DNA from: Dehalococcoidia bacterium
GTDB taxonomy: Bacteria > Chloroflexota > Dehalococcoidia > Lucifugimonadales > UBA3495
Direction: 5' to 3'
DNA length: 64,000 nucleotides
Assembly: GCA_965197545.1 (NCBI GenBank)
Contig: CBDANJ010000008.1
Coordinates: forward strand, 1,317,035-1,381,034
The position numbers and the translations under genes are program-made. The notes under the pieces were generated by a model. That model was not told the origin of the DNA. It did no database searches and saw nothing but the letters and a program-made list of their open reading frames with translations. Positions 1-55,341 of the stretch are shown one piece after another; positions within the stretch are counted from its first letter, which is position 1; each line of letters opens with the position of its first letter.

Positions 1-1
1 G

Positions 2-223
2 GCGGCGAACCTGCGGGGCTGCCCCCGGGTCTTCCTGGCCTTCGACAACGACAATGCGGGGAGGGAAGCCGTCCAGGGTCTGAAGGACCTCTTGGGCCGC
101 CGCGCCGCCGTGGTCAACCTGCCCCAGGGTGTCGCCGACGTGGGCGAGTTGGCGGCGCTGCCCCACGGCCAACTCCTCTTCCGCCGCCTGCTGGCACGGG
201 CGGCCCGCGCCGCCAGGCAATAG
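2..223 (+). CDS. Toprim-domain (primase-like) protein, 3' part; 5' end outside window
   Basis: Frame open from window edge to TAG 221-223; ...CPRVFLAFDNDNAGREAVQGLKDLLG... shows the acidic DxD Toprim signature. Confidence 0.55.
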   Translation, partial: AANLRGCPRVFLAFDNDNAGREAVQGLKDLLGRRAAVVNLPQGVADVGELAALPHGQLLFRRLLARAARAARQ

Positions 224-391
224 CCCCTAACGCAACCCTCTCCCCCACCACTTTCCATTCCTCTATACAGGATTCTACGCAACACCCTGGAAGACCTGCG
301 TCCAAATCACGACGGGTTTACACCCGCCCACGGCTTCCCTTTGGGAGTCCGCACACCCAAACGCCATATCACAACTTCAAGGAGATACGTC

Positions 392-1240: not shown

Positions 1241-1272
1241 ACCTTCCGGCTAACTGGCAACCACCCAGGCAA

Positions 1273-1305
1273 CGGGGCCGTTCCCTGACAACCGGGGCGG
1301 CCCCG
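1273..1305 (+). terminator. GC hairpin (CGGGGCCG..CGGCCCCG) after Rad52 gene; member of a repeated hairpin family
   Basis: 8-bp perfect stem 1273-1280/1298-1305, 30 nt downstream of stop; near-identical copy at 3850-3882. Confidence 0.5.
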
Positions 1306-1346
1306 CTTCTCATCTACCGGACCAAACAACACAAGGAGGAAACGGC

Positions 1347-1667
1347 ATGACCGGAACCAGAATGCACACGCCCTGGGGCTATCCTCAGGACATCGAGGAA
1401 CTGGCCGAAGGGGTCTGGCGGGTCTCCACCGCCAGCCACGGCGGGTTGAAGCTCAGCCGGGAGCGGTGGGAGGAACTCCCCGACCTGGTCAGGGACTCCT
1501 TCCTTACCCCGGCCTACGCGGAAGGGGACTGCGAGGAACCCATCGCCAGGACCCTGCTGGGTATCGGCGACGAAAGGGATAGGGGGTTCGCCCTGAAGGT
1601 GGCGGGCTGTTTCGACCGCTACGCCCCGGCGCTGCCCTACCTGCGAGACCAGAGGGGACAGCCATGA
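1347..1667 (+). CDS. hypothetical protein
   Basis: AAGGAGG 1334-1340 before ATG 1347; ATGA overlap with next gene; no family recognised. Confidence 0.55.
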   Translation: MTGTRMHTPWGYPQDIEELAEGVWRVSTASHGGLKLSRERWEELPDLVRDSFLTPAYAEGDCEEPIARTLLGIGDERDRGFALKVAGCFDRYAPALPYLRDQRGQP

Positions 1668-2059
1668 CCGCCACCAGGAGCAGGCCGCGCAGCCTGCCCA
1701 GCGTGACGACCAAGCTGGCGACGGAACTGGGCAACCTCTACGTCACCGTCTGCCTGGACGAGGACGGAAACCCCTTTGAGGTCTTCGGCTCCCTGGGCAA
1801 GGCCGGCAGCCTCCAGCACGGGGTCACCGAGTTGGCCTGCCGGCTGGTGTCCCTGCACTTGCGGCGCGGCACGCCGCTGGACGAAATCGTTGACCAACGC
1901 CAGGGCATTTCGGAGATGCAGCCCTGGCCCAACGTGATGGAGGACGGCAGCACGGTGTACGTGCGCGGCCTCGGCGACGGCATCGCCCTGATCCTGCGGG
2001 GCCACCTGGCGGCCCAAGCTGAAGTGGGAATGGAGGAACTCAGGCTGGCTGCCGACTGA
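1664..2059 (+). CDS. TSCPD-domain protein (ribonucleotide-reductase C-terminal-like domain)
   Basis: ...GNPFEVFGSLGKAGSLQHGVTELACRLVSLHLRRGTPLDEIVDQRQGI... resembles the TSCPD domain; translationally coupled to upstream ORF. Confidence 0.55.
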   Translation: MTATRSRPRSLPSVTTKLATELGNLYVTVCLDEDGNPFEVFGSLGKAGSLQHGVTELACRLVSLHLRRGTPLDEIVDQRQGISEMQPWPNVMEDGSTVYVRGLGDGIALILRGHLAAQAEVGMEELRLAAD

Positions 2060-2092
2060 AAGAACTGCGCTGACCAGACCTGCCAAGGCACA

Positions 2093-2122
2093 CGGGGCCG
2101 TCTCCTACGGGGAGCGGCCCCG
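2093..2122 (+). terminator. GC hairpin of the same CGGGGCCG/CGGCCCCG family
   Basis: Stem 2093-2100/2115-2122 directly after the TSCPD gene stop. Confidence 0.5.
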
Positions 2123-2164
2123 CTCAAATTTCCCCGACACAGCAATTACGGAGGAAAGACAACC

Positions 2165-3223
2165 ATGACGACGACCATTGACAGCAAGACGGACGTCTAC
2201 TCGCGGCCCAACGCCCGCTTCGGCGACGACGGGACCCTGGAGATCCGGGCCTCGGCGGTGGGCAACTGCCGCCGCGCCCTCTGGTACGAGGCCAACGAGT
2301 ACCCGGTCACCAACGCGCGTACCGAGGAGTCCCTGACCGTCCTGGAGGCGGGCAACGCCCTGGAGCCGGTGGTGCTCAAGGCCATGCGGCGGGCCGGTTG
2401 GGACATCACCCCTACCGACCGGGACAACCCTGAAATGATGTCCCTGCGCCTCGGCCCCGCCCTGGTGGTCACGGGCCACGTGGACGCCACCGGAATCGTC
2501 CCCATCTTCGGTGACGAACCCAGCGTCATCGAGATCAAGACCCGGGGGCCGGAAGCCTACAAGCGGTGGTGGAAGTTGGGGGCGGAGCGCAGCCACCCGG
2601 AGTCGGTGGCCCAGGCCGCCTTCTACTCCTACGGGACCTTCGGGGAGGCGCGGGACGTGGTGATCGCCACGATGGACACCGGCAGTCGCCAGTGGGACTT
2701 CGAGGTGATTCCGGCGGAGCGGGTCGCCACAGCTTTCCACCGGGCCTGCGAGCGGCTGGGTGCCATCGGCGCCCACCACCTGCTGCACGGGCGGGACTCT
2801 CAGGCCCTGCCGGAGCGGGACTTCACCGCCGACGACTGGCAGTGCCAGCGCTGCCCCTTCCTGAACACCTGCCTGCCGGGGTCAGCGGCGCCTGAACCCG
2901 AACCCGATGGAGGGGAAGAGAACGCCGAGCCGGTGAACGACGAAGAGGCGCAGGCGGCGCTCCGGGAGTACGAGAACGCCCAGGAGATGCTGAAGGCGAT
3001 TGAAGAGGACAAGCAGTGGGCCTTGGGGATGCTGCGGACCTGGCTCAAGCAGCAGGGCAAGGACAAGGCCCGGTTGGAGGGGAGGGAGAAGACCCGAACC
3101 GTGGGGATGGTGAAGTCCACCCGCTACAACGTCGATCACAAGAGGCTGAACGCCCTGCTGGAGCCGGAGACCAGGGCGGGCATCGTCACCGAGAACGTCT
3201 CCGAGTACCTGCGGGTCAGCTAG
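2165..3223 (+). CDS. PD-(D/E)XK nuclease, Cas4-like (four-Cys cluster)
   Basis: GHVDATG ... VIEIKTRG (D...ExK) plus Cys in GNCRRALWYE and C-terminal CQRCPFLNTC (CxxCx5C) as in Cas4/RecB-type phage exonucleases. Confidence 0.7.
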   Translation: MTTTIDSKTDVYSRPNARFGDDGTLEIRASAVGNCRRALWYEANEYPVTNARTEESLTVLEAGNALEPVVLKAMRRAGWDITPTDRDNPEMMSLRLGPALVVTGHVDATGIVPIFGDEPSVIEIKTRGPEAYKRWWKLGAERSHPESVAQAAFYSYGTFGEARDVVIATMDTGSRQWDFEVIPAERVATAFHRACERLGAIGAHHLLHGRDSQALPERDFTADDWQCQRCPFLNTCLPGSAAPEPEPDGGEENAEPVNDEEAQAALREYENAQEMLKAIEEDKQWALGMLRTWLKQQGKDKARLEGREKTRTVGMVKSTRYNVDHKRLNALLEPETRAGIVTENVSEYLRVS

Positions 3224-3255
3224 ACGCACCTTGACGCACCGAAGCGGAGCGCCAA

Positions 3256-3291
3256 CGGGGCCGCTCGTTCCCACGGAGATTGTCGGCCCCG
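3256..3291 (+). terminator. GC hairpin of the CGGGGCCG/CGGCCCCG family
   Basis: Stem 3256-3263/3284-3291 after the nuclease gene stop (3223). Confidence 0.45.
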
Positions 3292-3343
3292 CAATCCATA
3301 TGGGCAACCATCAATCACAACCTAACGTAACGGAGGAACCATC

Positions 3344-3808
3344 ATGGCGAAGAGCATCAACAAGGTAGAACTCCTGGGCCGGGTCGGAAGCGACCCGGAG
3401 ATGAAGTACACGGCGTCGGGCATCGCCGTCACCCAGCTGCGCCTGGCCACCGACCGGGTGCGCAAGGGCGGCGAGTCCGAGACCGACTGGCACCAGATCG
3501 TGGTGTGGGACAAGCTGGCTGAAGCTGTCGCGCAGTACGTGGAAAAGGGGCAGAGGCTGTACGTCTCGGGCCGCCTGGCGCAGAACTCCTGGACCGGCGA
3601 CGACGGGCAGCGGCGCTACCGAACCGAGATTCACGCCCAGGAGGTGGTGTTCCTGGACTCCGCCCGCAACGGCGGCGGCAACCACACGGGCAACGGCTCT
3701 GCCAACGGGGTCAACGCCGCCGCCAACCACCAGGCCAACGCCGGAAACGCCAACGGATTCAACGCTGGCGGTGGTTACCAGCCCGGCGACGAGGACTCTC
3801 CCTTCTAA
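3344..3808 (+). CDS. ssb: single-stranded DNA-binding protein
   Basis: MAKSINKVELLGRVGSDPEMKYT...WHQIVVWDKLAE...RYRTEIHAQEVVFLD, Gly/Asn-rich linker, acidic tail DEDSPF. Confidence 0.9.
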   Translation: MAKSINKVELLGRVGSDPEMKYTASGIAVTQLRLATDRVRKGGESETDWHQIVVWDKLAEAVAQYVEKGQRLYVSGRLAQNSWTGDDGQRRYRTEIHAQEVVFLDSARNGGGNHTGNGSANGVNAAANHQANAGNANGFNAGGGYQPGDEDSPF

Positions 3809-3849
3809 CTGGACATCCGCACACCGGCGCCTTCCCCAAGGCGCAACCA

Positions 3850-3882
3850 CGGGGCCGTTCCCTCACAGCAGGGGCGGCCCCG
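3850..3882 (+). terminator. GC hairpin, near-identical to 1273-1305
   Basis: ACGGGGCCGTTCCCTCACAGCAGGGGCGGCCCCGCT vs ACGGGGCCGTTCCCTGACAACCGGGGCGGCCCCGCT. Confidence 0.5.
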
Positions 3883-3917
3883 CTCCCGTTTCCAGACTAA
3901 TCGCCAAGGAGTGAACC

Positions 3918-4478
3918 ATGCCCAGGAAGAAGCAAGCCAAGCAAGAGGAAATGCTCCTGTCCATCCCCGAACCCGCCGCTCCCGCCACGCCGGAGGGCCA
4001 CGCCGTGCTGGAGGCCCTGCGCTCCAACCTGGCCCTGCTGGGGGAACTGGCGGCCCGCTACGAGGTCGCCTTCCAGCCGGAACGCCCCGCCGAGATGCCC
4101 ACCATCAACTGCCCGCAGGACGTTCACAACCTGCTGGGGCCGGAGATGTCCGCCCTGGCCCAGGAGCAGCTGCGGGTGCTGCTGCTCAACACCCGCAACC
4201 AGGTGCGGGGGCAGCGGGTGGTCTACATGGGCAACGTCAACTCGTCGGTGATTCGCCCCGCCGAGGTGCTGCGCGCTGCGGTCATCGAGTCCGCCCCCAG
4301 CATCATCATTTCCCACAATCACCCGTCCGGCGACCCAACCCCCAGCCCCGAGGACGTGTCCATCACCCGCGAGTTGGTGCAGGCGGGGAAGCTCCTCGGC
4401 ATCGACCTCCTGGACCACGTGGTCATCGGCGGCGACCGCTGGGTCAGCCTCAAGGAACGGAAGCTGATGGACGTTTAG
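3918..4478 (+). CDS. radC: RadC-like JAB/MPN domain protein
   Basis: JAMM motif ...IIISHNHPSGDPTPSPEDVSITRELVQAGKLLGIDLLDHVVIG. Confidence 0.85.
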   Translation: MPRKKQAKQEEMLLSIPEPAAPATPEGHAVLEALRSNLALLGELAARYEVAFQPERPAEMPTINCPQDVHNLLGPEMSALAQEQLRVLLLNTRNQVRGQRVVYMGNVNSSVIRPAEVLRAAVIESAPSIIISHNHPSGDPTPSPEDVSITRELVQAGKLLGIDLLDHVVIGGDRWVSLKERKLMDV

Positions 4479-4575
4479 CTCCATGACACCGAGACCGGCG
4501 GCGGCGCGCCGGTCCTCACGCGGGGGGTTCCCTTCCCCGCGCCCTTCCCGAATCCACACCTACAGGAGGCACTCC

Positions 4576-5256
4576 ATGATTCCCACGGAACCCGTCCAGA
4601 GCGGCGAGGACCCCGCATCGAGTGCGGGGCAGGCTCTCTACACGATAAGCGCCGGAGGCTACTCGGCCACCGCCGACGCCTTCGCCCGAGACCCCGACAC
4701 CGGCGGCCTCTGGTTCCTGTCGATGGTGGGGCCGCAGACCGCCCTCAAGGCCATCTGGGCCTCCCTGCTCAAGCAGCCGCCCGACACCGCCCACCTGATC
4801 AAGGGCGTGGAGGGCATGGCCCTCTCCGGCGGATACCAGCAGTGCCAGGTCCCGTATCACACCGTCGGCACCTGGACCACCCGCATCGTGCGGCTGCCCG
4901 TAAGCCGGGGCTGGCACGCCCTCGTTTACACCCGGCTGGCGGAGTTCAGCTTCGAGCGGGACGACTTCCTGCTGCTGGCCCAAGACCAGGCCGACGCGCC
5001 GGGGCTGCACCACCGCTTCCTGGACCGGCGCGGCCCCCTGCCCCTGCACCGCTCCTGGCGGGACTGGCTCTGGCGAAGGGGGTTGGACACCGGGGAGACC
5101 GTCCCCCTGGAGTCCGCCGGGCTCCTGGCCTACACCTGCAACCCCAGGGGCGAGGAACTGAAGGCCGACCTGTCGGCGGCGGTGGCGGCGGGGACGCTGA
5201 CCCTCAATGAACCGGAACCCGAAACCGATGAAACGGAGGAAGACAACGATGGATAG
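4576..5256 (+). CDS. hypothetical protein (carries a 24-nt micro-insertion at 4612-4635)
   Basis: AGGAGG 4564-4569 then ATG 4576; no family recognised. Confidence 0.5.
   Translation: MIPTEPVQSGEDPASSAGQALYTISAGGYSATADAFARDPDTGGLWFLSMVGPQTALKAIWASLLKQPPDTAHLIKGVEGMALSGGYQQCQVPYHTVGTWTTRIVRLPVSRGWHALVYTRLAEFSFERDDFLLLAQDQADAPGLHHRFLDRRGPLPLHRSWRDWLWRRGLDTGETVPLESAGLLAYTCNPRGEELKADLSAAVAAGTLTLNEPEPETDETEEDNDG
4612..4635 (-). repeat. AGCCTGCCC-hairpin micro-insertion, copy 5 (24 nt, in frame)
   Basis: Minus strand reads AG|AGCCTGCCCCGCACTCGATGCGGG|GTC; stem CCCCGCA/TGCGGGG. Confidence 0.7.
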
Positions 5257-5656
5257 GACTCTGAACCCGGTGAAGCGGGGCAACAAGCGCCGCCGCTCCC
5301 GCAACTGGAAGGCCTGGCAGCTCTTCTCCCCGGACGGTGACACCTGCCGTTTCTGCCCCCACGGGGCTTCCGACCACCTGACGTCAAGCGGTCAGCCCCA
5401 TTTCTACCGGCCCGCCGCCGAGCAGGACTGGCGGAACTCCAACGAGAAGCTCTACCGCCACGAACTGGCCGACGGCTCCGAGGTGCTGGTCAAGCGCATC
5501 ACCGTCGCCAGCCGCGCCGAGCTGCTGACGGCCTTCTGCACCGCCTGCGCCAAGGACAAGCAGACCGGCCAGGTTCTCTGCTTCCAGCGCACGCTGGCCA
5601 AGGGCGAGGTGGTGGGCCTGACGAACCTGAACGGAAACCACAACGACGGGAGGTAG
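5249..5656 (+). CDS. hypothetical Cys-containing protein
   Basis: GGAGGA before ATG 5249; CRFCPHG and CTACAKD pairs suggest metal binding; start uncertain (ORF opens at 5207). Confidence 0.4.
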   Translation: MDRTLNPVKRGNKRRRSRNWKAWQLFSPDGDTCRFCPHGASDHLTSSGQPHFYRPAAEQDWRNSNEKLYRHELADGSEVLVKRITVASRAELLTAFCTACAKDKQTGQVLCFQRTLAKGEVVGLTNLNGNHNDGR

Positions 5657-5660
5657 CACG

Positions 5661-5930
5661 ATGGCGGACAAGCAGACCCTGTACTTTCCCTGCCCCGGCT
5701 GCGGGGCGCGGTTTGCCCGGGTGGAGGAGACCGGCGAGGACATCCACGCCGGGGAGACCTACACCTGCAACGAGTGCGGCGCGGCGGTGGTGCTCGTCGC
5801 CCTGAGCATGGAGATGCTGGCCGATCCCGCATCCATCCGCTGGAACTGCCACTTCTGCCAGCCCGGCCCCTGCCGGTTGGCCCCGTCCAGCGGCGCCTCC
5901 GGCGACTCCGACAACACCGATTCCAAGTAA
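5661..5930 (+). CDS. hypothetical zinc-ribbon protein
   Basis: CPGCG...CNECG spaced as a zinc ribbon; 4 nt after the upstream stop. Confidence 0.4.
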   Translation: MADKQTLYFPCPGCGARFARVEETGEDIHAGETYTCNECGAAVVLVALSMEMLADPASIRWNCHFCQPGPCRLAPSSGASGDSDNTDSK

Positions 5931-5959
5931 CCCTTTCCACACAACAAAGGAGGACAGAT

Positions 5960-6993
5960 ATGAGACTCGCTGCCCAAGCCAAGGGAGGCTTCTATCCCAC
6001 GCCGCCCCGGGTGGTTGACCTGGCTGCCCAACTGCTCTACGGGGCCAGGGGCCGCTCCCGCAGCGCGGACACCCTGCGCATCCTGGACCCCTGCTGCGGG
6101 GCCGGGGATGCCCTGGCCCAGTTCGCCGGCCTGCTGCGCGACCGCGGCACCGTACCCGTGGAGACCTGCGGGGTAGAGCTGCATAGGGACCGGGCGGAGC
6201 AGGCGGCCCACGTCCTGGACCGCGCCCTGGCCTGCGACCTCTTCGCCACGTCGATAGCCAACAACGCCTTCGGCGTGCTTCTCTTGAACCCCCCTATGAC
6301 TTCGATGCCGAAGACAAGCGCACCGAACACGCCTTCCTCACGCACACCACGCGCTACCTGACCGACGGCGGGCTGCTGCTGTTCATAGTCCCCAAGCAAA
6401 GGCTCTCCGTTTCCGCCCGCTACCTCTCCTCCCACTACCGGGACATCCGGTGCTGGGCGTTCCCCAGCCCGGAACGGGAGGTCTTCGACCAGGTGGTGCT
6501 GGTGGGCCGGCGCAAGGCGGAACCCAGCCCCGACCCCTACGCCGAGGAGCAGGTGCGGGACTGGGCCGAGGGGGAGCCGGAGGAGTTCTCGCCCCGCCCC
6601 TACCCGGTCTACGACCCTCCGGTGGTTGCCGCCGGGGACATCCTCTTCGCCACCCGCACCGTTGACCCCCTGGCGGCGGTGACCGAGGCTCGGAAGACCG
6701 GCCTGTGGGCCAGCCAGGAGGTCAGGGACTCCCTCTGGCCCGCCCAGGACCAGCGCACCCGCCCGTTGATGCCGCTCCGCCGGGGCCACATGGCCATGCT
6801 GGTGGCGGCGGGTTTCCTCGACAACCTGGTGCTGGAGGCCGAGGGAAGGCGCATCCTGGTCAAGGGGCGCACCACCAAGGAGCTGGTGCTGGCCGAGGAG
6901 ACGGAGAACACCGAGGTCTACCGGGAACGGCTCAAGACCACCGTCGTGGCCCTGGACCTGGACGACGGGGAGATCACCGACATCGCCGCCTGA
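5960..6993 (+). pseudogene. SAM-dependent N6-adenine DNA methyltransferase, frame broken in a C6 run
   Basis: AGGAGG then ATG 5960; motif I ILDPCCGAGDAL; LLLNPP then frame slips at CCCCCC 6289-6294; the next frame continues YDFDAEDKRTEHAFL... to 6993 (restores NPPY). Confidence 0.7.
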
Positions 6994-7044
6994 CCCCGCC
7001 CAACGACAACTACTCTGACGGCTGCAACGCCAGCCGCGACACGA

Positions 7045-7080
7045 AGGCCCCGCTTGTTCCACCAGGGACGGGCGGGGCCT
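7045..7080 (+). terminator. intrinsic-terminator-like hairpin
   Basis: AGGCCCCGC/GCGGGGCCT stem followed by CGCTTTTCC. Confidence 0.55.
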
Positions 7081-7121
7081 CGCTTTTCCGAAAGGCAACA
7101 CTCAAGGCAAGGAGATTACCC

Positions 7122-7347
7122 ATGAACCTGTCAGGATTCATCGACCAGTTCAAGGAGGCCATCGCCAGGCGGGTGGTGGAGTCCTACCCGCCCCTCTACC
7201 GGCCTTCGGAGAACGGCCAGAAGCTGCCCCGGCTGCTGCGCACCCCGATGGGCGGCCAGGAGGACGCCATCAAGGGCACAGCCCTGTCCCTCCAGGCCCA
7301 CCGGGGCACCACGGTGGTGGGCGAGATGGGCACGGGCAAGACCTTCA
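7122..7347 (+). CDS. DEVH-box (SF2) helicase, exon 1, ending inside the Walker A region
   Basis: GGAG then ATG 7122; ...TTVVGEMGTGKTF then GTGCG intron 5' end at 7348. Confidence 0.8.
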
Positions 7348-8525
7348 GTGCGCCGCGTCACGCGGCATAGGATACCCGGCTCAGTCGGGAAGAACCCGGA
7401 GAAAGTTCTTGGGCCAACCGACCCACCTCGAAGCAAAAGCTTAGGGGGACAACAGCATGTCGGTAAAGCGGCTACAGTCCCAAAGCGTTGTAGGACTGGT
7501 TCCGCAAGGCCCGCGCGATACGGTGAAAGCTTGATTGCCTGAACCCCAGTTTCCAATTGGTGTTCTTGCCACCCGCCGGTAGAACGCTTGTAACCCGGCG
7601 CCGCTCATTGCACTGGTCTGATGAAGGAACAATGCAACTCCGATGAGCGGACGATGACCAGTGTGGTCATTCAAGGGAACGAACGGGGCACCTACAGTCG
7701 CGCTAGAACGTCCTATGTCAATGGAACGCGGGATGGCCTACGGGGGGAGACCCCTATGGTCACGGAGCCCTCGTAGTAGTCCGAGGACGGGAAAGCCGTC
7801 CACATGGCGAAGGAGGGCAGGTGTCAACGACGAACAAACACAGAGAGGTATGCACAATGCAAGACGCCGAAACTGTATTGAACGTCATACGCGAACGCGG
7901 AGAACGAGGATTGCCGCTGGAGAACATCTATCGGCTGCTTTACAACCGGAACTTGTACCTGCGGGCCTACGGTCGCATCTACTCAAACCAGGGAGCTACG
8001 ACCAAGGGCGTCACCGCAGAGACCGTGGACGGTATGTCACTGGCGAAAATCGACCGCATCATCGAAGCCTTGCGCTACGAGCGGTTCAGGTGGACGCCGG
8101 TGCGACGGGTCAACATTCCCAAGCCTAACGGCAAGACCCGCGCCTTGGGCATACCGACGTGGACGGACAAGCTGCTGCAAGAGGTCATCCGGATGATTCT
8201 GGAAGCCTACTACGAGCCGCAGTTTTCCGACCGCTCCCACGGCTTTCGGCCCAACCGGGGGTGCCACACCGCCTTGAGCAACGTGACCACCCACTGGACT
8301 GGTGTCCGCTGGTTCGTCGAGGGCGACATCAAAGGGTGCTTTGACAACATCGACCACGATGTCCTGTTGTCGGTGCTCGGCGAGAAGCTCCACGACAACC
8401 GATTCCTACGCCTGCTCAAGTACCTACTAAAGGCAGGCTACGTTGAGGATTGGAAGTATGGCGGCACGCTGAGCGGTACACCGCAAGGCGGAATAGTCAG
8501 TCCCATCCTCGCCAACATCTACCTA

Positions 8526-9750
8526 AACCAAAGCCAAGGTGAAACGTGCAGGAGCGTCCGGTAGAATCGGGGGAGTCGCAGGTGCGACGCGGGAAGCAGG
8601 AGTGGGATGGTGCTGGGCATGGGAGAGATCGACCGGTTCCTGGAACAGTGGGAAATGGACGCGCCGGGTGTGCACCAGCGGCTGATTCTGGCGCCGACAC
8701 CCCGGGAGCGATGGCACGCCATCTGGCTCCTGTCCCAGGGCTGGAGTGCCGCGGACACTGCCGTGGCCCTGCGTAGGGATTCTCATACCATAGGGAAGTG
8801 GCTTGCCGCCTTCGGCCAGGGCGGCCCGGCGGCTTTGATTTTCGAGCAGTCCGGAGGGTCCCCCCGCCCTTGGCCAGGCGCAGCGGGAGGAGTTGAAGGC
8901 GGCGGTGCAGGAACCTCCTGGCGCATCGGGCATTGGCTTGGCCAACTGGAACTGGAGGGCGGTGTGTCAGTTTGTCCTGGAGTGCTTCGGCGTCAGCTTG
9001 AGCCGCAGCAGTTGCCTGAACTACCTGCACCGCTTGGGATTCGCCTTCAAGCGGCCCAAGAAACGCCTGCTCAAGGCTGATGTGGAAAGGCGGGAGGCCT
9101 TTGTGGCAGAGTACGCTTCCTTGGTGGAGGAGGCGCAGGAGAACGGGGAGAAGATATTCTTCGCCGACGAGGCCCACTTCCGGGCGGACGCCGAGTTGCG
9201 GGGCAAGTGGGTGCTGAGGGGAGAGCCGGCCTTGGTAGACTCGACCAGCCCGAGGTACGGCGAGAAGGCTAGCTACTATTCGGCGGTGTGCTTGGAGACG
9301 GGGAAAGTGGAGTGGATGGAGTTGGAGGGAAACAGCAACAGCGAAACGTCGGCAGCCTTCCTGGAGCAATTGCGGGAGAAGCACGGAGGTCGGCTGAACG
9401 TGATCTGGGACAACGCGCCAGCGCATCGCGGCGAGGCGGTGAGGGAACTCCTGAAAAGGCCCGGACTGAACCTGCGGCTGGTGAATCTGCCGGGGTACAG
9501 TCCGGACTTCAATGCCGATGAGGCCATCTGGGGCTGGGCGAGAGAGGAGGCGACCGGCAACCTGTGCCTGGGAAGCAAGGGGCTGGTGCAGGAGAGAGTC
9601 GGCAGCTTCCTCGCCGGGCTGGTCAGCCGGAAGGACGAGGTGAAACGCCGTTGCCGAACCGTCCTGCAATCACGGACCGCAGGATTACTGCGCTCCACCC
9701 AGCCTGATTCCCAACATCCAGCAAATGCACATCCCACCTTGGCTTTAGTT
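8526..9750 (+). mobile_element. IS630-family insertion sequence with TA target duplication
   Basis: Inverted repeats AACCAAAGCCAAGGTG (8526-8541) and CACCTTGGCTTTAGTT (9735-9750) flanked by TA (8524-8525, 9751-9752). Confidence 0.8.
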
Positions 9751-9753
9751 TAG
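8607..9753 (+). pseudogene. IS630-family DDE transposase in two frames (shift at C6 run 8860-8865)
   Basis: HTH part ...WLLSQGWSAADTAVALRRDSHTIGKWL..., then ...IFFADEAHF...VIWDNAPAHRG...LPGYSPDFNADEAIW...; frames join at ...SGGSPP/ALGQAQREEL. Programmed frameshift versus indel not resolvable. Confidence 0.7.
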
Positions 9754-9792
9754 ACCGGTTGGACAAGGCTTTAGTTTAGACCGGTTGGACAA
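9741..9792 (+). repeat. 26-bp perfect tandem duplication spanning the IS630 right end/target junction
   Basis: GGCTTTAGTTTAGACCGGTTGGACAA x2 (9741-9766, 9767-9792). Confidence 0.9.
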
Positions 9793-10995
9793 GTTTGTCG
9801 AGAACGTGCTGATACCAGCCCACACCCGTGGCTCAGACCGGAGAGACAACCGCGAGTACACACGTTTGCTGAACCAAGCGGCCCGCCAGAGGAAGCGGGG
9901 GAACCACGCCAAGGCACTGCAACTGCGCAAGCAAATGCAACAACTGCCATCGCGTGACCCCTACGACCCCGGCTACCGCCGGTTACGGTACGTGCGCTAC
10001 GCGGACGACTTCGTGCTGGGTTTCATCGGGCCAAAGGTCGAAGCCCAACAGGTGAAAGAGTCCTTGGAGACGTTCCTGCGCGACTCGCTCAAGCTGGAGC
10101 TATCCAAGGAGAAAACTCTCATAACCCACGCCACCAGCCAGGCGGCGCGGTTCCTCGGCTACGAACTCGTGAACCAACAGGCCAACGACCAGTTTGACCG
10201 CAATGGTCGGCGCAGGGTCAACGGCCAAATCGGATTGCGGGTCCCCGCCGACGTCATCGAACAACACTGCCAAGCCTACATGCGCAAAGGCAAACCGGCA
10301 CACCGCAGTTACCTACTCCACGATGAAGATTACTCCATCGTGGCACAGTACCAGTCGGAGTTCCGGGGCGTCGTCAACTACTACCTTCTGGCCTACAACG
10401 TCTCCCATTTCGGGCGACTGCAATCGGTCATGGAGATGTCTTTGGCACGGACCCTTGCGGCAAAGCACAAGTCCACCGCACGGAAGATGCGACGCCAGTA
10501 CAAGAGCGTCGTGGAAACCGAGCACAGGCCGCGTGTCTGTCTCAAGGTCGTCAAGCAACGGGACAACGGCAAGCCACCTCGCGTGGCATATTTCGGTGGC
10601 ATCCCCCTGAAACGGCAACGGCAGGCCGTCCTAGTAGACCAACAGCCTCAACGGTACAGGAGCGGCCGCAACGAGCTTATCAAACGGCTCGAAGCGGACG
10701 AGTGCGAGGTGTGCCACTCAACGGTGAAAGTAGAAATTCATCACATCCGCGCACTTCGCGACCTGAACGTGAAAGGCCAACGGGAAAAGCCCAAGTGGGT
10801 ACAAATCATGGCGGCGCGAAAACGCAAGACCCTCGCGGTCTGCCGGACGTGTCACATGGACATCCACCACGGGCGCAAGTAATCCGCAATCGCAGCGGTA
10901 GTTAGTGTCCTCGGCTTAGGCAAAAACCAAAGTCGGGCCAGAGCCTTTCCTCCAACAATGTATTGGGCTACGGTATCCGGCAGAGGTGATAAAGC

Positions 10996-11196
10996 ATGAG
11001 CAAAGATATGCAGACCCGTATAGGCATAGGAATCGCGCTCGGAACCGGGGTAGGCGCGGCCATAGGCGTAGCCATCGGCGTGTCACTCGGCGATATCTTC
11101 CTGGCGATCGGCGTGGCAATCGGTGGGGGGACCGGCGCGGTGATAGGAATTGCCGTGGCGGTGGCGCTTGGGCGCAGAAATGGTGACACTTCCTAG
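10996..11196 (+). CDS. small glycine-zipper membrane protein (66 aa) inside intron domain IV
   Basis: GAGGTGA 7 nt before ATG; ...IGIGIALGTGVGAAIGVAIGVSLGDIFLAIGVAIGGGTGAVIGIAVAVALG...; two predicted helices of GxxxG repeats. Coding status unproven. Confidence 0.4.
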   Translation: MSKDMQTRIGIGIALGTGVGAAIGVAIGVSLGDIFLAIGVAIGGGTGAVIGIAVAVALGRRNGDTS

Positions 11197-11223
11197 ACAC
11201 TACCGCTTTGTAAAGACACTGGA

Positions 11224-11257
11224 GAGCCGGATGCGGTGAAAGCCGCACGTCCGGTTC
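11224..11257 (+). ncRNA. group II intron domain V
   Basis: GAGCCGGATGCGGTGAAAGCCGCACGTCCGGTTC, canonical 34-nt DV with GAAA loop and AGC triad. Confidence 0.9.
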
Positions 11258-11320
11258 GGAGGGGGGCCGACGGAAAAGTGCCCTGAGCAATCAGGGTAAC
11301 TCGCCGGCGGCCTACCCTAC

Positions 11321-12860
11321 TCGGCGCCGCCGCCGCCCACGCCGCCGGCTTCCGGCGCATGTTGATCCTCTGCCCGCCTCACCTCACCCGAAAGTGGAAG
11401 CGGGAGGTGGAGGACACGGTGCCCGGCGCCCGGGCTGCCATCGTCGCCTCCATCACCGACCTGGAACGGCTGCGGCTGTCCGTGGGTCCCGCTCCCCTCT
11501 TCGCCATCATGTCCCGGGAGCGGGCCAAGCTGTCCTACCGCTGGCAGCCCGCCGTGATCCAGCGCTGGGCCGCCGCCGGGGGCCGGCTGGTGCGGGACGA
11601 GCAGACCGGCGAACCCTTCCAGGTGCCCTGCTGCCCCCGCTGCTACGCCCAGGTGGTGGACAAGGACGGCGTGCCCCTGACCAACGAGGAGTTGTCCCGC
11701 AAGCGTCGCAACTGCGACCTGTGCAGGTCCGCCCTCTGGCAGGCCGACGGCTCCGGTCCCCGGCGTTATCCCCTTGCCGACTACGTGAAGCACCGGATGA
11801 AGGGCTTCTTCGACCTGCTGATTGGCGACGAGGTCCATGAGTACAAGGGCCGCGGCTCCGCCCAGGGCATCGCCGCCGGGGTCCTGGCCGACTCCTGCGG
11901 CAAGTCCCTCACCCTTACCGGCACCCTCACGGGCGGCTATTCCTCAACCCTGTTCCACCTGCTCTACCGCTTCTCGCCGGAGATTCGGACCGAGTTCGCT
12001 CGCTCCGAGGAGGGCCGCTGGATACAGCGGTACGGCTTCCTGGAGCAGACGGTGCGCCACTCCGACGACGGCGACTCCTTCGAGGACGGGCGCAACAGCC
12101 GCCGCAAGGGATACCGCAAGACGGTCAGGGAAAGGCCCGGCCTGGCTCCCTCGGCCCTCTTCCACCTGATCGGCAACAGCGTGTTCCTGCGCCTCTCCGA
12201 CGTGGCCTCGGGGCTGCCGTCCTACGAGGAGCAGGTGCTGCTGTCGGGCATGGACCGGGAGACGGACTTTACCGGCTTCTCCCAGCGCAAGGCCTACGAC
12301 CTGGTGTTCGACACCCTGCGGCAGGCCCTGGCCGAAGCGTTGGCCAAGGGTTCCAAGCGGCTCCTTGCTACGTACCTGCAAACCCTGCTGGCCTACCCCG
12401 ACGGCTGCACCGGGGGGAGACGGTCTTCGACCCCCAGACCGGAAACATCCTGGTGCAGATGCCGCCCCTGTCCGAGGACAAGCTCTACCCGAAAGAGCAG
12501 GCCCTGGTGGACCTGGTGGCGGCGGAAAGGCTGGCGGGCCGGAAGGTGCTGGTCTACGCCACCCACACGGGAACGCGGGACATCACCGAGCGGATGGAGC
12601 AGTTCCTGACTACGCACGGGTTCAGGGTGGCGGTGCTCAAGGCCGACTCGGTGGCCCCGGACCGCCGGGAGTCCTGGGTGGAGGAACGGGTCAAGCAGGG
12701 GGTGGACGTGGTCATCTGCCATCCCCGCCTGGTGCAGACCGGGCTGGACCTGATCGACTTCCCGACCCTCTGTTGGTTCGAGACGGAGTTCTTCGTCTTT
12801 CAATCAACAGAAAAAAGTACGGTTCTCATGGGCAGTCGATATGGATGCGGTTGGGGTTGA
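11321..12860 (+). pseudogene. DEVH-box helicase, exon 2; frame broken at a G6 run and 3' end replaced
   Basis: Joins exon 1 as ...GTGKTF|IGAAAAHAAGFRRMLILCPPHL...; DEVH at 11827-11838; frame slips at GGGGGG 12412-12417. Helicase-C block ...VLVYATHTGTRDITERM...ICHPRLVQTGLDLIDFPTLCWFETE follows, then composition changes near 12795 and a stop occurs at 12858-12860. Confidence 0.75.
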
Positions 12861-13288
12861 ATAGGTGGCAGCGGGCTGGGGAGAACACCGACCTCCGACC
12901 TTTGTCCGATAGAAAGGCAAGTCTGTCCGCCGCTCTATGGGTTCAAGTCTTCTTAGGTGGGCCTGCACATACCGAATTGCGAACTTTTCGGTGGGAAGTC
13001 CTGATATAAGGAGTCGCCTTGCCTACATCGGCTTAGCCTACACCGACCTCCAGACTACGATGAAGGTGCATAGTCATACCAATGCCGATGGCCGCGCCTA
13101 GCCCCTCCCCAACATTGCGCTTGTCCAGTCTACATTTCGTCTTAGACGCTTAGCTTCTGTGAAAATAATAGATTTCATGCTTGGGCCACGGTTTTTTCGC
13201 TATGTACCTCCCTAACACCCGTCTAACCGCTGATGGTCGGGTCTAAGTGTGCCCGCGGGGTTGTTTGGCTCCTCGCCTATGAGGCTGA

Positions 13289-14371
13289 CTAATCGTCCCT
13301 GAATAGATTTAGCTGTCGCGGATTCGGCAAGTCTAGGATTGGGGTGTTTGCCCTGTTTAGCCGCGACGATACCCATTCGGGTGTACCGATAGCTACTCCA
13401 GTTTCAGCCGAGATCATCTCCAATATTGCGGTACGACGTTTGTCTCCTATGCCGTCCCACCAATCGGGGTTCACGACTAGAGCGTCGGCGAAGCGTAGGA
13501 TACATTGCGAGACCATTTCCTCCTGCTTCTTTCCCTGTGCCCTTCTTTGTAGCGCTATGCGCTGTTCCATGACTCCCCGTTGCCCGCCAAAGTAATGCCA
13601 TATTACGTCGTGACCGGTACCGTCAGCCCGAGGGACCACGTTCAGACCCCAATTCTCGTGACCTCGTAAGCCCAGTGAAAACGTAGAAGCTGCTAGTTTG
13701 GGCTTCCCTTTCAGGGGAATCACTGTATGAGTTACGAAACTGCACTGGATCCCGTTGCATTCCGCACAATTCTCGGGTTCCAAGCAATTCTGAAGGTTCT
13801 GTTCATAATAATTTAGACTTTCAAGACTTTCGTTGAGAATGGAAAAAACGCCGGTTTTGAGGCCATCAGCTCTTGGAACATTGTGAAGGGAGGAGCCAAT
13901 AGCCTCAGACTCTTTCAATGCGTATCTGCGAGACTCCACCCTCCATTGCTGTGCTAAGACTGACCTGTAAACTGCCCAGTTTAGGTTCCTAAGGCTATAG
14001 TCCTGTGTTTCAGTTAAGTTGTCTACATTGTTGAAGCATACGTCGTGAGCGCGGCATAGGAACTTGTAACGTTGAGCTTTCTCTGTGTCACACTGCTTGG
14101 GGTCAATTGGTATGGGCCTTCGTCCGCGCGGAGTGTCGGAAAATCTCAAATCCCTCAGCAAGTAATTCCAGGCTGAAGGGTAAAATTCAATTACCCTTTT
14201 GTCAGTTTCTATTGCCCTCATCCAGAAACTCGCTAAGGCATGTGCCCTGATCGCAGTACCGTCGCAATTGGGCCATAGGCAACCCCTGTCGTATGAGAGT
14301 CCGGCAGTAAGTTGAGCCAAGCGTTGGAGCTTTGGCTTTTGACTATCCGGTACGAAGTCCTTGAATTTCAT
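13289..14371 (-). CDS. hypothetical Cys/His-rich protein (possible HNH-like nuclease), last gene of a low-GC operon
   Basis: ORF opens at TTG 14449; first ATG at 14371 (MKFKDF...). GCLWPNCDGTAIRAHALA and YKFLCRAHDVCFNN loosely resemble His-Me finger elements; no family recognised. Confidence 0.45.
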   Translation of the reverse strand: MKFKDFVPDSQKPKLQRLAQLTAGLSYDRGCLWPNCDGTAIRAHALASFWMRAIETDKRVIEFYPSAWNYLLRDLRFSDTPRGRRPIPIDPKQCDTEKAQRYKFLCRAHDVCFNNVDNLTETQDYSLRNLNWAVYRSVLAQQWRVESRRYALKESEAIGSSLHNVPRADGLKTGVFSILNESLESLNYYEQNLQNCLEPENCAECNGIQCSFVTHTVIPLKGKPKLAASTFSLGLRGHENWGLNVVPRADGTGHDVIWHYFGGQRGVMEQRIALQRRAQGKKQEEMVSQCILRFADALVVNPDWWDGIGDKRRTAILEMISAETGVAIGTPEWVSSRLNRANTPILDLPNPRQLNLFRDD

Positions 14372-14463
14372 CTCTGCCCCGGAGTGCGCCTGTGTAAACG
14401 CGTGGAGTCGGCCAGTGGGACTCAGTCTGGTATAAGGACGGTGGTACAAAGTTCAGTCTGTTA

Positions 14464-14724
14464 TCAACTCAGTCCCGCAAGGCCGAAAAAAGTGGGCTTA
14501 AGGGGACTGTTCACAGTACCACCTTTGAGTTGGTAGTGGGCCTGTAGATCCCTTAAGCGGACAGCGTGATTGTTAAGCTCCTCCGTTATATATGGCAACG
14601 TGAACTCGTCAACACTGCCTTTGCCCCAAGGATGTGCATCTGGAGCCGACTGTCGAGTTCGCCTCTCACATTCCCTTGCATATGAAGGTGCCACAAGTAA
14701 TTGTACTAGGTGGGCAGTTGTCAA
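14464..14724 (-). CDS. hypothetical protein (86 aa)
   Basis: ATGA overlap with the upstream gene (14721-14724); same AT-richer composition. Confidence 0.4.
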   Translation of the reverse strand: MTTAHLVQLLVAPSYARECERRTRQSAPDAHPWGKGSVDEFTLPYITEELNNHAVRLRDLQAHYQLKGGTVNSPLKPTFFGLAGLS

Positions 14725-15518
14725 ACATCTAGCTCAGCAACGGCGAATGACTGCAATGCGGCCGCGACATGGATCGCTAGCTCCGCTCGTGGTCCCGTGG
14801 GTTCATTGCCACCTATGGAAGCGTGCCTAGCACCGACAGTTCCGCTGCCTTGGCTGTAGAGCGCACCGAATAGTCGCTTGATTCCACCGGGCAAGTCGGG
14901 CCGCAAATTTTCACTGACTATGGTGGGAAGTGCCACGCTTGGACGGTCGAAGATAACCTGCAGTACCCCCTCGACGGAATTAACGGCCTCCTTGATGGCA
15001 TTGGGCCAATCGGGAGGCAATCTGTTTCTGAACTCGTAAGCACGTTCGAACTGTCGGCGAGGCTCGTCAAATTTCTCATCCTCCAGGGCGGTCCTAGCAT
15101 CATTGACCGCACCATGGAATTCTTCCGTGCCTACACGGACCAGATTCCCCGAGTCAAAACGGTACCCGATTCCTTCGTCTGCAAGAATTCCATTAGTTGC
15201 TTCGTAGTATGGCTCAACTTCCTGCTCGGGCAAGAACCTAGGAATTCGCTCCAACGCATCGAAGAACTTATACCAAGGCCCTGTCTGAATCAGTTGTGAT
15301 ACCTCAAAATCAACATTTGGATAATCACTCCAGTTATTTTGGTCTGGAGTGATTCTGAGTGCGCTACATAGGATTTGTCGCTGTGCTGTCGGCCTTTGGT
15401 AACCCAGAACATGCAGCACCTCACGAATTCCAATGCGGATGGCATCGGGAGCGTCGTCATACACCAAGTTGGTTCCATTCCTAAAGCCTTCACGCAAAGA
15501 GAATGGTTGATTTGTCAT
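14721..15518 (-). CDS. AbiJ-N-terminal-domain / Abi_C-like protein (putative abortive-infection component)
   Basis: N-terminus MTNQPFSLREGFRNG...DDAPDAIRIGIREVL fits my memory of the AbiJ NTD pattern (FSxRxG...LRxxLW). C-terminus ...LFGALYSQGSGTVGARHASIGG... resembles the Abi_C/HEPN-like conserved GxRH region. From memory only. Confidence 0.4.
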   Translation of the reverse strand: MTNQPFSLREGFRNGTNLVYDDAPDAIRIGIREVLHVLGYQRPTAQRQILCSALRITPDQNNWSDYPNVDFEVSQLIQTGPWYKFFDALERIPRFLPEQEVEPYYEATNGILADEGIGYRFDSGNLVRVGTEEFHGAVNDARTALEDEKFDEPRRQFERAYEFRNRLPPDWPNAIKEAVNSVEGVLQVIFDRPSVALPTIVSENLRPDLPGGIKRLFGALYSQGSGTVGARHASIGGNEPTGPRAELAIHVAAALQSFAVAELDV

Positions 15519-15520
15519 TG

Positions 15521-15742
15521 TCAGCCCCCTCGCAAGCTAATCAGAGCCGATGATAGCACAGGCACGAAGTTTGAATATGAGATATTTCCCGTCCCCTTTA
15601 ACTCATACTTGGGGATGGCAGGTTCGTTGAATATGCACTCGAGGAAAATCACCGCAAATGCCATCCCACTGAGGCGTAGGCTGGGAGAATCCTCGGCTGT
15701 AGCGGTCTTTTCCATGACCGCTACAGCGTTTAGGGAACCCAA
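15521..15742 (-). CDS. hypothetical protein (73 aa)
   Basis: Stop 2 nt before the next start; 6 nt after the upstream stop. Confidence 0.35.
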   Translation of the reverse strand: MGSLNAVAVMEKTATAEDSPSLRLSGMAFAVIFLECIFNEPAIPKYELKGTGNISYSNFVPVLSSALISLRGG

Positions 15743-15748
15743 GACGGG

Positions 15749-15970
15749 TTACCGCCTCAGGAATAAAGGCGACAAAACACCTCCAGCGGCTCCCAAGGCG
15801 AAAACATAGACGGTGAGCGATTCGTAACCCGTCCACACTTGCCCTGGCCAAATCCGCGGGACACCGTGTTCCCACCCGACAATCCAAATCCCTGCGGCGA
15901 AGATTCCGCCAATTAATATCCTATCGACTAACTCTCGCGGCGCACCCACGCCAGTTAGTCCCCTCTGCAC
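15749..15970 (-). CDS. small two-helix membrane protein (73 aa)
   Basis: ...ILIGGIFAAGIWIVGW...LTVYVFALGAAGGVLSPLFL; first ORF of the tight five-gene set. Confidence 0.4.
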   Translation of the reverse strand: MQRGLTGVGAPRELVDRILIGGIFAAGIWIVGWEHGVPRIWPGQVWTGYESLTVYVFALGAAGGVLSPLFLRR

Positions 15971-16389
15971 GGCCCGGATACGGGCATAGACATGCTGAAT
16001 ACAAAGTCCTGGAAGCTCACTCGAACTCTCCTTGCCTCCGGCAGTGATGTTCCGGAGGCCTTCATTAATCTCGACGTGTTACCAACGCGCCGTTTCAAGG
16101 AGAGCTTTAGATCATTCCAGTTGAGGCATTTCGCCTGCGCTGAATCCCGCCCGCGAGACTCCGACTTGCTGGGGCCGGACGACTTGAGCTTGTCTTCCGG
16201 CTAGAAAGTACAATCGTGTGGGAGCGTCCCACCCCATCTTCCTCCAAAGCCGAACTAATGCCGGCAACTTCCCGAGGAGGCAAGCGGCCATAGAAAGGGT
16301 GGCTATCCTCAGCCAGTCCAAACTGCTGAGAAGACAGAAGATGCCAAGGATAGCTAAGGTCAGCAACACATGGGACTGGACAAATACCA

Positions 16390-18202
16390 CTAGAAACTGG
16401 GCCGGAAAGTCCTGGTTGGGTAGGGGAATTTGGGCAGTAAAGCCGATGTGAGCAGAATCACGGACCACAGTTGTCCGAGCCGGACCTCGCAGAAATTGGC
16501 CGCAGCATGGGCGACAACAAAGGGGACAATATTGAAGACGACGCTGCGGCCTGTTGCGCCGCCGCCGGTACGGCCCGACCACCCGAGTTTCCCGGCCGCC
16601 AGGGTCAGGTTGGCTACTGTGGCAGCCAGATACAGCTGGAACCTGGTCTTGACCCTGCCGAAATATCGGGACTGGCGAATGCCCAACTGGACCAGTCGGG
16701 CCAACCGGTGTTCCACCACCACCCGGCGCACTCGATATTCGTCATAGTGAGTGCTTTGCTGCAACGCTCGGGCCTGCTGCAGCAGGGCTTCCTGGGGATG
16801 GAGCAGCACCCGCCGCCCCCTGCTCCCCTTGGCTGCGATGCACTGGGACCGCAGTGGACATGTCCGACATTCGGCCCCGTCGAACTGGAAGGCCTGCAAG
16901 CGGTGGACCCGCCCCGTGCGACCCGTCCGCTTTCCCGCCGGCACGATGGTGTGGGTAACCTGTCCCGCCGGACAGGTGCAACTGCCCGCGGCCAGGTCGA
17001 TGACAAAGTCATCCTTGGGAAAGTGCTTCCGGTCGGGCCTTCCCGGCACTCTGGCCACCAAACAGCGTCCCGCATCGGCGAAGGCCTGCCTGGTATCGCC
17101 GTCCCCATAAGCGGCATCGCCCATGGCTTCCTCCACCGGCACACCGGTGTTGGCCTCGCTCTGCTCCACCAATTCCAGCGCCCCCAGGTTGTCCGGAGCG
17201 TTGCCGGGCAATACCTCCACCGCGGTGATCAGCTGGGAGTCGGTGTCCACCACAATCGCCGCCTTGTGGCCGTCAAACCGTCTACTGCTGCTCTTGCGGC
17301 CGTGGCGCATCTCCGGGTCATGCACCGACATCATCCGGTCCCGGCTCACCCCGTCCTTGAGATTCACTCCGTCATCGGCCCGCTCCACGTCCTGGAGCAG
17401 CAACTGCCCCAGCAGTTCCGCTGCGGCCACTATCTGCTGCCGCTCAGCGCTGTCATCCCCCAACTCCCCCTGCGCCCGCCGCGACAACTCCAGCAACCGG
17501 TCCGCGTCAGCTACTATCAAGGACAGCAGCGCCGTCCGGTCCCGTTTGTTGCTCCAGTCGATGGCGGCCTCGCCCTTGATGCTGGAGGCAAGGTACCGCC
17601 CATATCCCCGGGCCTTGGCCCATTTCCCGACGCTGATTCCCTCAACCTGCGACAGCGCCCGCAGCAGTTTGACGATCCCGTCCGCCAACAGGTTGTAGGT
17701 GTCCTTCACCGCGCCCCGCCCCAGGATGTTGGTCGTGTCCAATGCCACCCGCATCCCGCGCCCTTTCAGATACCCCGACTCCCGGGCCAGTCTCAGACTG
17801 GACTCGAACACCTCCCGCACCTTGCCGTGCAGGATCAGCTGGGCGCGGAACACCTGCAGCGTGCTCTTGGCGAAGGGCCGGTCTTCCGCCTCAATTCCCA
17901 ACGCCACCCCCGGTCGTGGCCGGGGGCAGGCTCTTCCAGCGGAGGTCAAAGTCGGCCCGGGCCTTGGCCTCGGCGTCGCTCACCTTGTCGTGGGACTGCA
18001 ACAGCAGCGCCGTCGCCAGCAGGCTGGGCGGCACGCTGTCCCGGCCGTTGTCGGGGCAGTAGAACTCGGCGAAATCCGCGTCTCGGAACAGCCGGCCCCG
18101 CAGCGACGCCAGAAGACCGTAGAAGCTTTCCCGCCCCACATGGTCCAGATACAACCGATCCGCTTCCCAGAACCCTCTCTGGTCCGAACGCTCTCCCAGC
18201 AT
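16390..18202 (-). pseudogene. IS1182-family transposase, frame broken only by a 25-nt micro-insertion
   Basis: N-terminal part ...SVPPSLLATALLLQSHDKVSDAEAKARADFDLRWK then 25 nt (17908-17932) then VALGIEAEDRPFAKSTLQVFRAQL...; CTCPAGQ...CRTCPLRSQC block; stop lies in the IR. Confidence 0.8.
17908..17932 (-). repeat. AGCCTGCCC-hairpin micro-insertion, copy 1 (25 nt)
   Basis: Minus strand: ..TGGAAG|AGCCTGCCCCCGGCCACGACCGGGG|GTGGCG..; stem CCCCCGG/CCGGGGG. Confidence 0.8.
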
Positions 18203-18305
18203 TCTCAGCCCTCGCTATGCTTGTTGACCCCAAGTATAGCCAATTGCCCGGCTACCGCCACTTTCCGGCCAGATTTCTAGGGCCTCCCGCGGGATGCGAC
18301 GGCGT

Positions 18306-55274: not shown

Positions 55275-55341
55275 TCGGGGCAGCCCGGGGGATATGTTGA
55301 GGCTGGACCCTGACGTTCTCATCTCTTGAGCGCTTCTGTTC

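Follow-up and report, generated by a model that had tools for sequence, protein, structure and literature searches.

Proteins of the AbiJ-NTD4 type have been defined as fusions of this N-terminal domain to an AbiJ-type HEPN domain, with CBY_0614 of Clostridium butyricum as the prototype (Anantharaman et al. 2013, PMC3710099). The mechanism of AbiJ is still unknown, an action as a HEPN ribonuclease (RNase) toxin being the standing prediction (PMC13064643). SadR, a protein of the Abi_C type, has been shown to be an RNase, and the AbiJ-NTD4 subtype is rare, with 3 members among 2,815 Abi_C-type proteins (PMC13590631). No experimentally tested member of the subtype is contained in these three papers. 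The present text deals with a stretch of 64,000 nucleotides (nt) from a Dehalococcoidia bacterium (contig CBDANJ010000008.1), called the window in the following, and in particular with five open reading frames (ORFs) on its minus strand, A to E, which the original prediction had taken as an uncharacterised defence operon of five genes. All coordinates are given on the forward strand of the window. The third of these frames, C, encodes a protein of the AbiJ-NTD4 type and the last, E, a protein of an undescribed family.

The five-gene operon was not borne out. Probably the region from 13.3 to 16.0 kb is a mosaic within a horizontally acquired island of low guanine plus cytosine (GC) content that is rich in mobile elements, with two independent single-gene modules, C and E, juxtaposed there by local rearrangement and no five-gene system present. 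ORFs A, B, and D were found to have no relatives, the loci of C and of E in other genomes are separate, and nucleotide homology breaks immediately upstream of E.

The five open reading frames

The five minus-strand frames that had been predicted were all recovered, and so was the AT-richer composition ascribed to them: the GC content is 0.47–0.55 over 12750–16500 as compared with 0.65–0.72 in the neighbouring helicase gene and insertion sequence (IS). ORF A occupies 15749–15970 (73 amino acids, GTG start), ORF B 15521–15742 (73 amino acids, TTG start), gene C 14721–15518 (265 amino acids, ATG start), and ORF D 14464–14724 (86 amino acids, TTG start), the TTG of D overlapping the TGA of C as TTGA. 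The longest mechanical frame of E runs over 13289–14449 and yields 386 amino acids from a TTG. As all full-length homologues have 347–374 amino acids and begin with MKF, MQF, or MTF at the place that corresponds to the ATG at 14371, this ATG is regarded as the start of gene E (13289–14371, 360 amino acids) rather than the TTG at 14449, and the true gap between D and E is therefore 92 nt. Thus the tight packing described earlier holds insofar as the frames are open and lie on one strand, but it results in part from the use of the longest mechanical frames. The starts of A, B, and D, all non-ATG, were likewise picked mechanically, and a 94 amino acid ORF in another frame (15603–15887) covers the junction of A and B. 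In the 10-kb neighbourhood 80 ORFs of at least 40 amino acids are found across all frames.

A concatenated query of A, B, and D retrieved no homologue among 5.8 billion proteins, and none of the three matched Pfam, NCBIfam, PADLOC, or PHROGs. Other C homologues lack conserved counterparts of A and B in their upstream regions. One contig, L010, is 99.3% identical to the window over 15956–14895; A, B, and C up to codon 208 are common to both, and beyond this point L010 diverges. At this degree of DNA identity the common presence of A, B, and C is uninformative on selection. The differences between the two sequences consist of a frameshifting 1-nt indel in A, which is weak evidence as the L010 contig has only 4x coverage, and of a flipped 8-nt hairpin loop in B, and none of them falls into C; B is not called as a gene in L010. 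The hairpin (GCTGTAGCGGTC ATGGAAAA GACCGCTACAGC) has a perfect 12-bp stem and is located at 15696–15727 on the minus strand, inside B and thus in the leader of C, corresponding to 229–260 in L010. There the loop has exactly the inverse orientation, which points to hairpin-mediated loop flipping or to template switching.

That the five ORFs nevertheless form a true lineage-specific operon, in which A, B, and D would be orphan small proteins and A for instance a membrane partner with two transmembrane segments, is very improbable. The frames are open, close-packed, and on one strand, A has two hydrophobic segments, A, B, and C recur together in L010, and the in-frame codon score of D resembles that of real genes. 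Against these observations stand the missing homologues and the non-ATG starts of A, B, and D, the position of the L010 differences in A and B, the competing 94 amino acid frame overlapping both, and the breakpoints described below. Most likely A, B, and D are noncoding, A and B lying in the leader of C (15519–16389, minus strand), a region which probably carries the promoter of C, and D in junction DNA between C and E (14372–14720, minus strand).

Separate loci and breakpoints

The four remaining partners were looked for around C and E in other sequences by tblastn and hidden Markov model scans. Near close homologues of E no A, B, C, or D was found in four other independent contexts (loci L001–L004, L005/L006, L007, and L012), and no A, B, D, or E was found at four loci with a C homologue (L008, L009, L019, and L020). 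The neighbours of C homologues differ at L008, L009, L011, L019, L020, L021, and L022. Joint occurrence of the five genes was thus seen nowhere else, the nearest cases being the strain variant L010 with A, B, and C and the locus L011, where a C homologue and a distant E relative are present without forming one operon.

The nucleotide alignments place the seams of the mosaic. Homology to the C locus L008 ends at 14697. Homology to the E loci L001–L004 and L012 begins at about 14386–14389, which is 15–18 nt before the ATG of E, and these loci share more upstream sequence with each other beyond the breakpoint in the window. With L012 the homology spans 14386 to 12956. L005/L006 align with the window from 14342 and are 80% identical in DNA over 14342–11729, a segment comprising E and the 3' part of the helicase gene. 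For the 310-nt segment with D between the breakpoints no match was obtained in the window or at the other loci. Since homology breaks so close upstream of the start codon of E, the adjacency of C and E is attributed to a local rearrangement.

Some observations speak for a closer relation of the genes than a mosaic implies. C, D, and E could be co-transcribed here. In a small codon-usage likelihood test, the training set of which was too small, the in-frame score of D is like that of a real gene. In L011 the C homologue lies 2 kb from the distant E-family gene, a proximity not to be expected of a rare family, and a functional link retains some plausibility. One might accordingly picture C and E, possibly with D, as a real defence unit of two or three genes transcribed from the promoter of C, with an AbiJ-like sensor and RNase and a nuclease effector. 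The common strand, the TTGA overlap of C and D, and the short distance from D to E would fit such a unit, and as the native upstream sequence of E has been replaced to 18 nt before its ATG, transcription must come from upstream sequence here. However, none of the four other independent contexts with a close E homologue contains C, none of the four other C loci contains E, PADLOC treats proteins of the C type as a single-gene candidate, and D is without relatives. The E-like gene in L011 is attached to a different operon, and between it and the C homologue lie two further genes, one of which is oppositely oriented. A unit of C and E is hence regarded as improbable, and the mosaic of two independently moving genes is retained as the preferred reading.

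Gene C

The protein encoded by C (14721–15518, minus strand) had been described as AbiJ-like at its N-terminus, and this proved right. The Pfam model AbiJ_NTD4 (PF18863) matches it with an E-value of 2.4e-17 and 64.2 bits, the cut-off being 34, with residues 5–141 aligned to positions 2–149 of the 152 positions of the model. A full-length match is obtained with the PADLOC model PDC-S32 (PDLC04997, E-value 1.7e-23; residues 6–262, model positions 10–280 of 285). Homologues of C form more than 113 clusters, and plasmid relatives 28–30% identical to C are named "AbiJ-NTD4 domain-containing protein" in RefSeq. A metagenome scan for relatives of C returned two loci. The ratio of nonsynonymous to synonymous substitution rates (dN/dS) is at most 0.19. 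No paper on PDC-S32 was found in a literature search.

For the C-terminal half an Abi_C or HEPN-type domain had been proposed, of which the HEPN part is supported by structure and conservation. An AlphaFold2 model built from 33 homologue clusters reached a predicted local distance difference test score (pLDDT) of 89.5, and its best Foldseek matches in the PDB are HEPN proteins (1ufb with a probability of 0.97, 1wol, 2hsb, and 4nqf). In the family alignment R164, N165, D170, R231, and H232 are invariant. R244 and H250, which enclose the residues AELAI, are both at least 90% conserved and make up an R-x5-H sequence, i.e., the Rx4-6H signature of HEPN domains, at the beginning of the last helix (242–263) of the model. 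Two results weaken this assignment: the E-values of the HEPN matches in Foldseek are weak (0.2–5), and Pfam Abi_C (PF14355) was absent from residues 140–265 of C and from three homologues even at E-values up to 10.

In comparison with the described family, C thus shares the NTD4 domain above cut-off, the full-length agreement with PDC-S32, a similar length of about 265 amino acids, and a helical, HEPN-like C-terminal domain with the R-x5-H motif. Genes of this type also occur singly in varied contexts, often in defence islands. C differs from the annotated examples by its low identity to the plasmid proteins, by the unrecognised Abi_C domain, and by a match to the NCBIfam model STM4504/CBY_0614 far below cut-off (28.9 versus 150 bits). 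Judged from its sequence, C adds a new, divergent protein to a known candidate defence family and is an intact, stand-alone candidate abortive-infection gene. By analogy with AbiJ and Abi_C proteins, the N-terminal domain would sense a phage component or restrain the RNase, and the four-helix HEPN domain with R244-x5-H250 would cleave RNA upon infection, by which the infection would be aborted. RNase activity and a role in abortive infection are accordingly given as a candidate function of C.

Gene E

Gene E (13289–14371, minus strand) had no match in Pfam, NCBIfam, PADLOC, or PHROGs apart from a single, non-significant one to PADLOC REase_II (0.058). Its close homologues, which are 59–92% identical, fall into 25 clusters; every one of these stems from metagenome assemblies, and in none is a Pfam domain found. 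A scan of 185,579 species genomes yielded a single close homologue, in a Dehalococcoidia metagenome-assembled genome (MAG), with 88% identity. A profile search of 1.84 billion proteins extended the family to a superfamily of 88 representative clusters, clustered at 50% identity. No tblastn match to E or to a methyltransferase-linked relative was found in plasmid and phage collections, and profile scans of IMG/VR for the family found none either.

The frames are intact with 347–374 amino acids in 18 clusters, and every residue conserved over the superfamily is present. Over 60 diverse members, H44, C106, H109, D/E110, D/E117, and R/K136 are conserved in all 60, C31 in 59, and C/H36 in 57. The consensus of the superfamily reads CLxxxxCxxxxIxAHxI ... 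FxCxxHDxxFxxID and is followed by a C-terminal NLF. The dN/dS values are 0.20–0.35 at dS up to 1.4, from which it follows that E is a real gene under long-term purifying selection.

The original prediction had seen a degenerate His-Me finger in this protein. This is plausible though unproven. The two elements it pointed to, Cx4C..AH and LCxxHD, turned out to be the most conserved positions of the superfamily; a link of these to any HNH family was returned by no profile, PDB-sequence, or fold search. The pattern C-x4-C-x7-H ... C-x2-H-D/E-x2-F-x3-D/E seems to resemble a zinc-stabilised beta-beta-alpha-metal site as in His-Me finger (HNH) enzymes, among them Type II and Type IV restriction endonucleases. 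In E the distance from the first histidine to CxxH is 65 residues, presumably longer than in typical HNH domains. On this pattern, C31, C/H36, C106, and H109 would bind zinc, and the invariant H44 together with D/E110 and D/E117 would form a metal-dependent nuclease site similar to a His-Me finger.

Several results count against the nuclease assignment. No profile, PDB-sequence, or fold search places E in a nuclease family. In particular, no HNH model of Pfam, NCBIfam, or PADLOC and no PDB sequence matches E, the 60 members, or the profile; searching the 60 members against Pfam and PADLOC disclosed no shared family, and searching E profiles against PDB sequences gave nothing relevant. An hhalign comparison of the E profile with the HNH domain of an intron in the window gave a probability of 0.1, i.e., no similarity. 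The AlphaFold2 model of E, built from 18 close homologues, is poor (pLDDT 50.5), and its Foldseek matches are for this reason regarded as noise; in the model H44 follows a strand (41–43) and H109 and D110 stand at the start of a helix (107–117), with a local pLDDT of only 33–52. The label "nuclease" is therefore taken from the motif pattern and the gene context and is meant as probable. A further point is that a methyltransferase accompanies the gene in only 2 of about 10 independent contexts of the superfamily.

These two contexts nonetheless bring E close to Type II restriction-modification (R-M) endonucleases, which it also resembles in its size of about 360 amino acids. In two lineages a distant relative, P0141 (loci L015/L016) or P0153 (L017), immediately follows an N6_N4 methyltransferase gene in the same orientation, 195, 122, and 10 nt lying between the two genes. 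The methyltransferases are 41–43% identical and the E-like proteins 30%, so that the pair has been kept across divergence, as expected for an R-M pair. The island in L015 (4313–8950) and L016 (583–5384) is compact and lies amid housekeeping genes, miaA and dapF in the case of L015; the methyltransferase and the E-like gene are followed in it by an AAA_15/AAA_21 ATPase and a DUF3226 protein, which may constitute a separate two-gene defence system.

Unlike these relatives and unlike typical Type II R-M systems, the subfamily to which E belongs has no linked methyltransferase: beside E it is lacking in the window and likewise in L001, L005, L007, and L012. For this reason E would be a DNA nuclease working alone, which might be modification-dependent in the manner of Type IV enzymes or otherwise self-limited. 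The same absence would also suit a decaying or domesticated remnant, for instance an orphan restriction endonuclease deprived of its methyltransferase or a selfish gene of the homing type, with no defence role here. In the window, L001, L005, and L012, transposases and IS fragments surround E, its homology block ends sharply near the gene, and its promoter region has been replaced in the window. A remnant would hardly be expected to keep intact frames in 18 clusters and all superfamily-conserved residues, nor dN/dS values that indicate long-term purifying selection, and this explanation is considered unlikely. E stands alone, belongs to an undescribed family with proteins of about 360 amino acids, and is probably a nuclease. 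DNase activity of E, RNase activity of C, and any defence phenotype of the two are putative.

Relatives of E in other contexts

Besides the methyltransferases, a second type of defence gene was met near relatives of E. In L011 (positions 1–12798 of the 4.09-Mb circular contig ctg160191_93x_c) a full-length relative of 338 amino acids (hhalign probability 99.9) begins 47 nt after a set of genes for BubA (Multi_ubiq), BubBD (ThiF), and BubE (PF20137), which corresponds to a Type II Bub operon (bioRxiv 10.1101/2024.11.21.623953). The region is a defence island, in which CapP/CapH-like genes (Peptidase_M78, HTH) are located upstream of the Bub operon. The AbiJ-NTD4 gene follows 2 kb on, and after it come two unknown genes (787 and 321 amino acids) and a second HTH_3+M78 gene. 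In another member of the superfamily, P0178, the N-terminal 41 residues correspond to the C-terminal end of the PADLOC E2 and E1-E2 models (1.7e-6), which hints at a fusion with an upstream E2 gene or at read-through from it.

The E-like gene in L011 may be a Bub-associated effector. A fourth, E-like gene is not among the Bub components described in bioRxiv 10.1101/2024.11.21.623953, and the link consists of the one locus and the one hint from P0178. In the window, in contrast to Bub operons, no gene for a ubiquitin-like protein, E1, E2, or BubE is found near E.

Elsewhere in the superfamily, P0140 comes after a phage portal gene at the edge of a prophage, and P0158 overlaps a DUF4058 gene. 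The neighbours in the close family are transposases, a giant DEAD+UvrD helicase, and an SNF2/PLD helicase with an MmeI-like methyltransferase. The giant helicase is encoded in L012 (Dehalococcoidia MAG, OZ250180.1; 17–5176, minus strand) as a protein of 1719 amino acids in which DEAD/Helicase_C and UvrD-helicase modules are fused; it is located 0.8 kb upstream of the closest genomic E homologue in divergent orientation, with an IS21 IstB fragment downstream. It is conceivable, though less likely than not, that the superfamily of about 88 clusters, nearly all metagenomic, comprises undescribed zinc-stabilised nucleases which would supply the cleaving activity in several kinds of defence system, namely as R-M endonuclease, as stand-alone and possibly modification-dependent restriction enzyme in the subfamily of E, and as Bub effector.

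The surrounding island

The set had been described as wedged between a truncated mobile-element helicase and an IS1182 copy. The latter is real: it extends over 16390–18280 on the minus strand, 870 nt upstream of C, has 21-nt terminal inverted repeats at 16390–16410 and 18260–18280, and carries a frameshifted transposase (NCBIfam transpos_IS1182, 1e-71; Pfam DDE_Tnp_1_6). It does not mark the boundary of the island, as the low-GC tract resumes past it up to about 19300; the element has therefore inserted into the island. In the low-GC DNA past the IS1182 copy a protein of 596 amino acids without Pfam match is encoded at 18983–20773 on the plus strand. By eye it appears to be made of two similar halves, in each of which hydrophobic segments and a cysteine-rich stretch ending in ...AYLTLT are seen. 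Beside its gene lies an ORF for a hydrophobic protein of 111 amino acids (18306–18641, minus strand), and both are uncharacterised.

On the other side E is followed by a low-GC spacer (12861–13288), which is homologous to L005/L006, with 72% identity, and to L012, and which accompanies E in some relatives. Next comes the helicase gene (7130–12860, plus strand), which runs convergent with E. This gene is indeed disrupted, but not by a simple truncation: right after motif I (GEMGTGKT, about 7329–7350) it is split by a group II intron, and its 3' part is frameshifted at about 12453–12609. An ORF for reverse transcriptase, maturase, and HNH domains is present in the intron in two halves, 7821–8564 and 9785–10882, interrupted by an IS630-like element with a DDE_3 and HTH_33 transposase (8893–9753), and the 3' end of the intron is defined by domain V/VI (RF00029) at 11222–11320. 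The helicase frame resumes at about 11321 with LILCPPHL. This 3' exon (11321–12860, plus strand) contains an SNF2/DrmD-like motif and a Helicase_C part, its matches to Pfam Helicase_C and PADLOC BrxH/DrmD being weak. In L005/L006 it is likewise found in synteny with E, and it does not belong to a module with C.

Farther away in the window, an MmeI-like Type IIL R-M gene (52568–55502, minus strand) adjoins uvrA (55342–58308). It is read in two overlapping frames, one with MmeI_N and MmeI_hel (54270–55502) and one with MmeI_Mtase and the target recognition domain (52568–54430), and is probably frameshifted. Weak methyltransferase-like tblastn matches at about 59.0 and 60.7 kb were rejected, as one is adjacent to a DDE transposase ORF and no Pfam match was obtained with the ORFs covering the other.

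Implications

A shared strand, tight spacing, and low GC content can mimic an operon in a patchwork of mobile single genes and noncoding filler, and the region between 13.3 and 16.0 kb probably is such a patchwork. Its practical yield is an intact divergent AbiJ-NTD4/HEPN gene, C, and with E a family which is covered by no domain library. Should E be a nuclease, the family would represent a new variant of restriction-enzyme fold and possibly a handle on the function of Bub. The link to the Bub operon, if true, would provide the first candidate effector for Bub systems, the biological output of which is still unknown.

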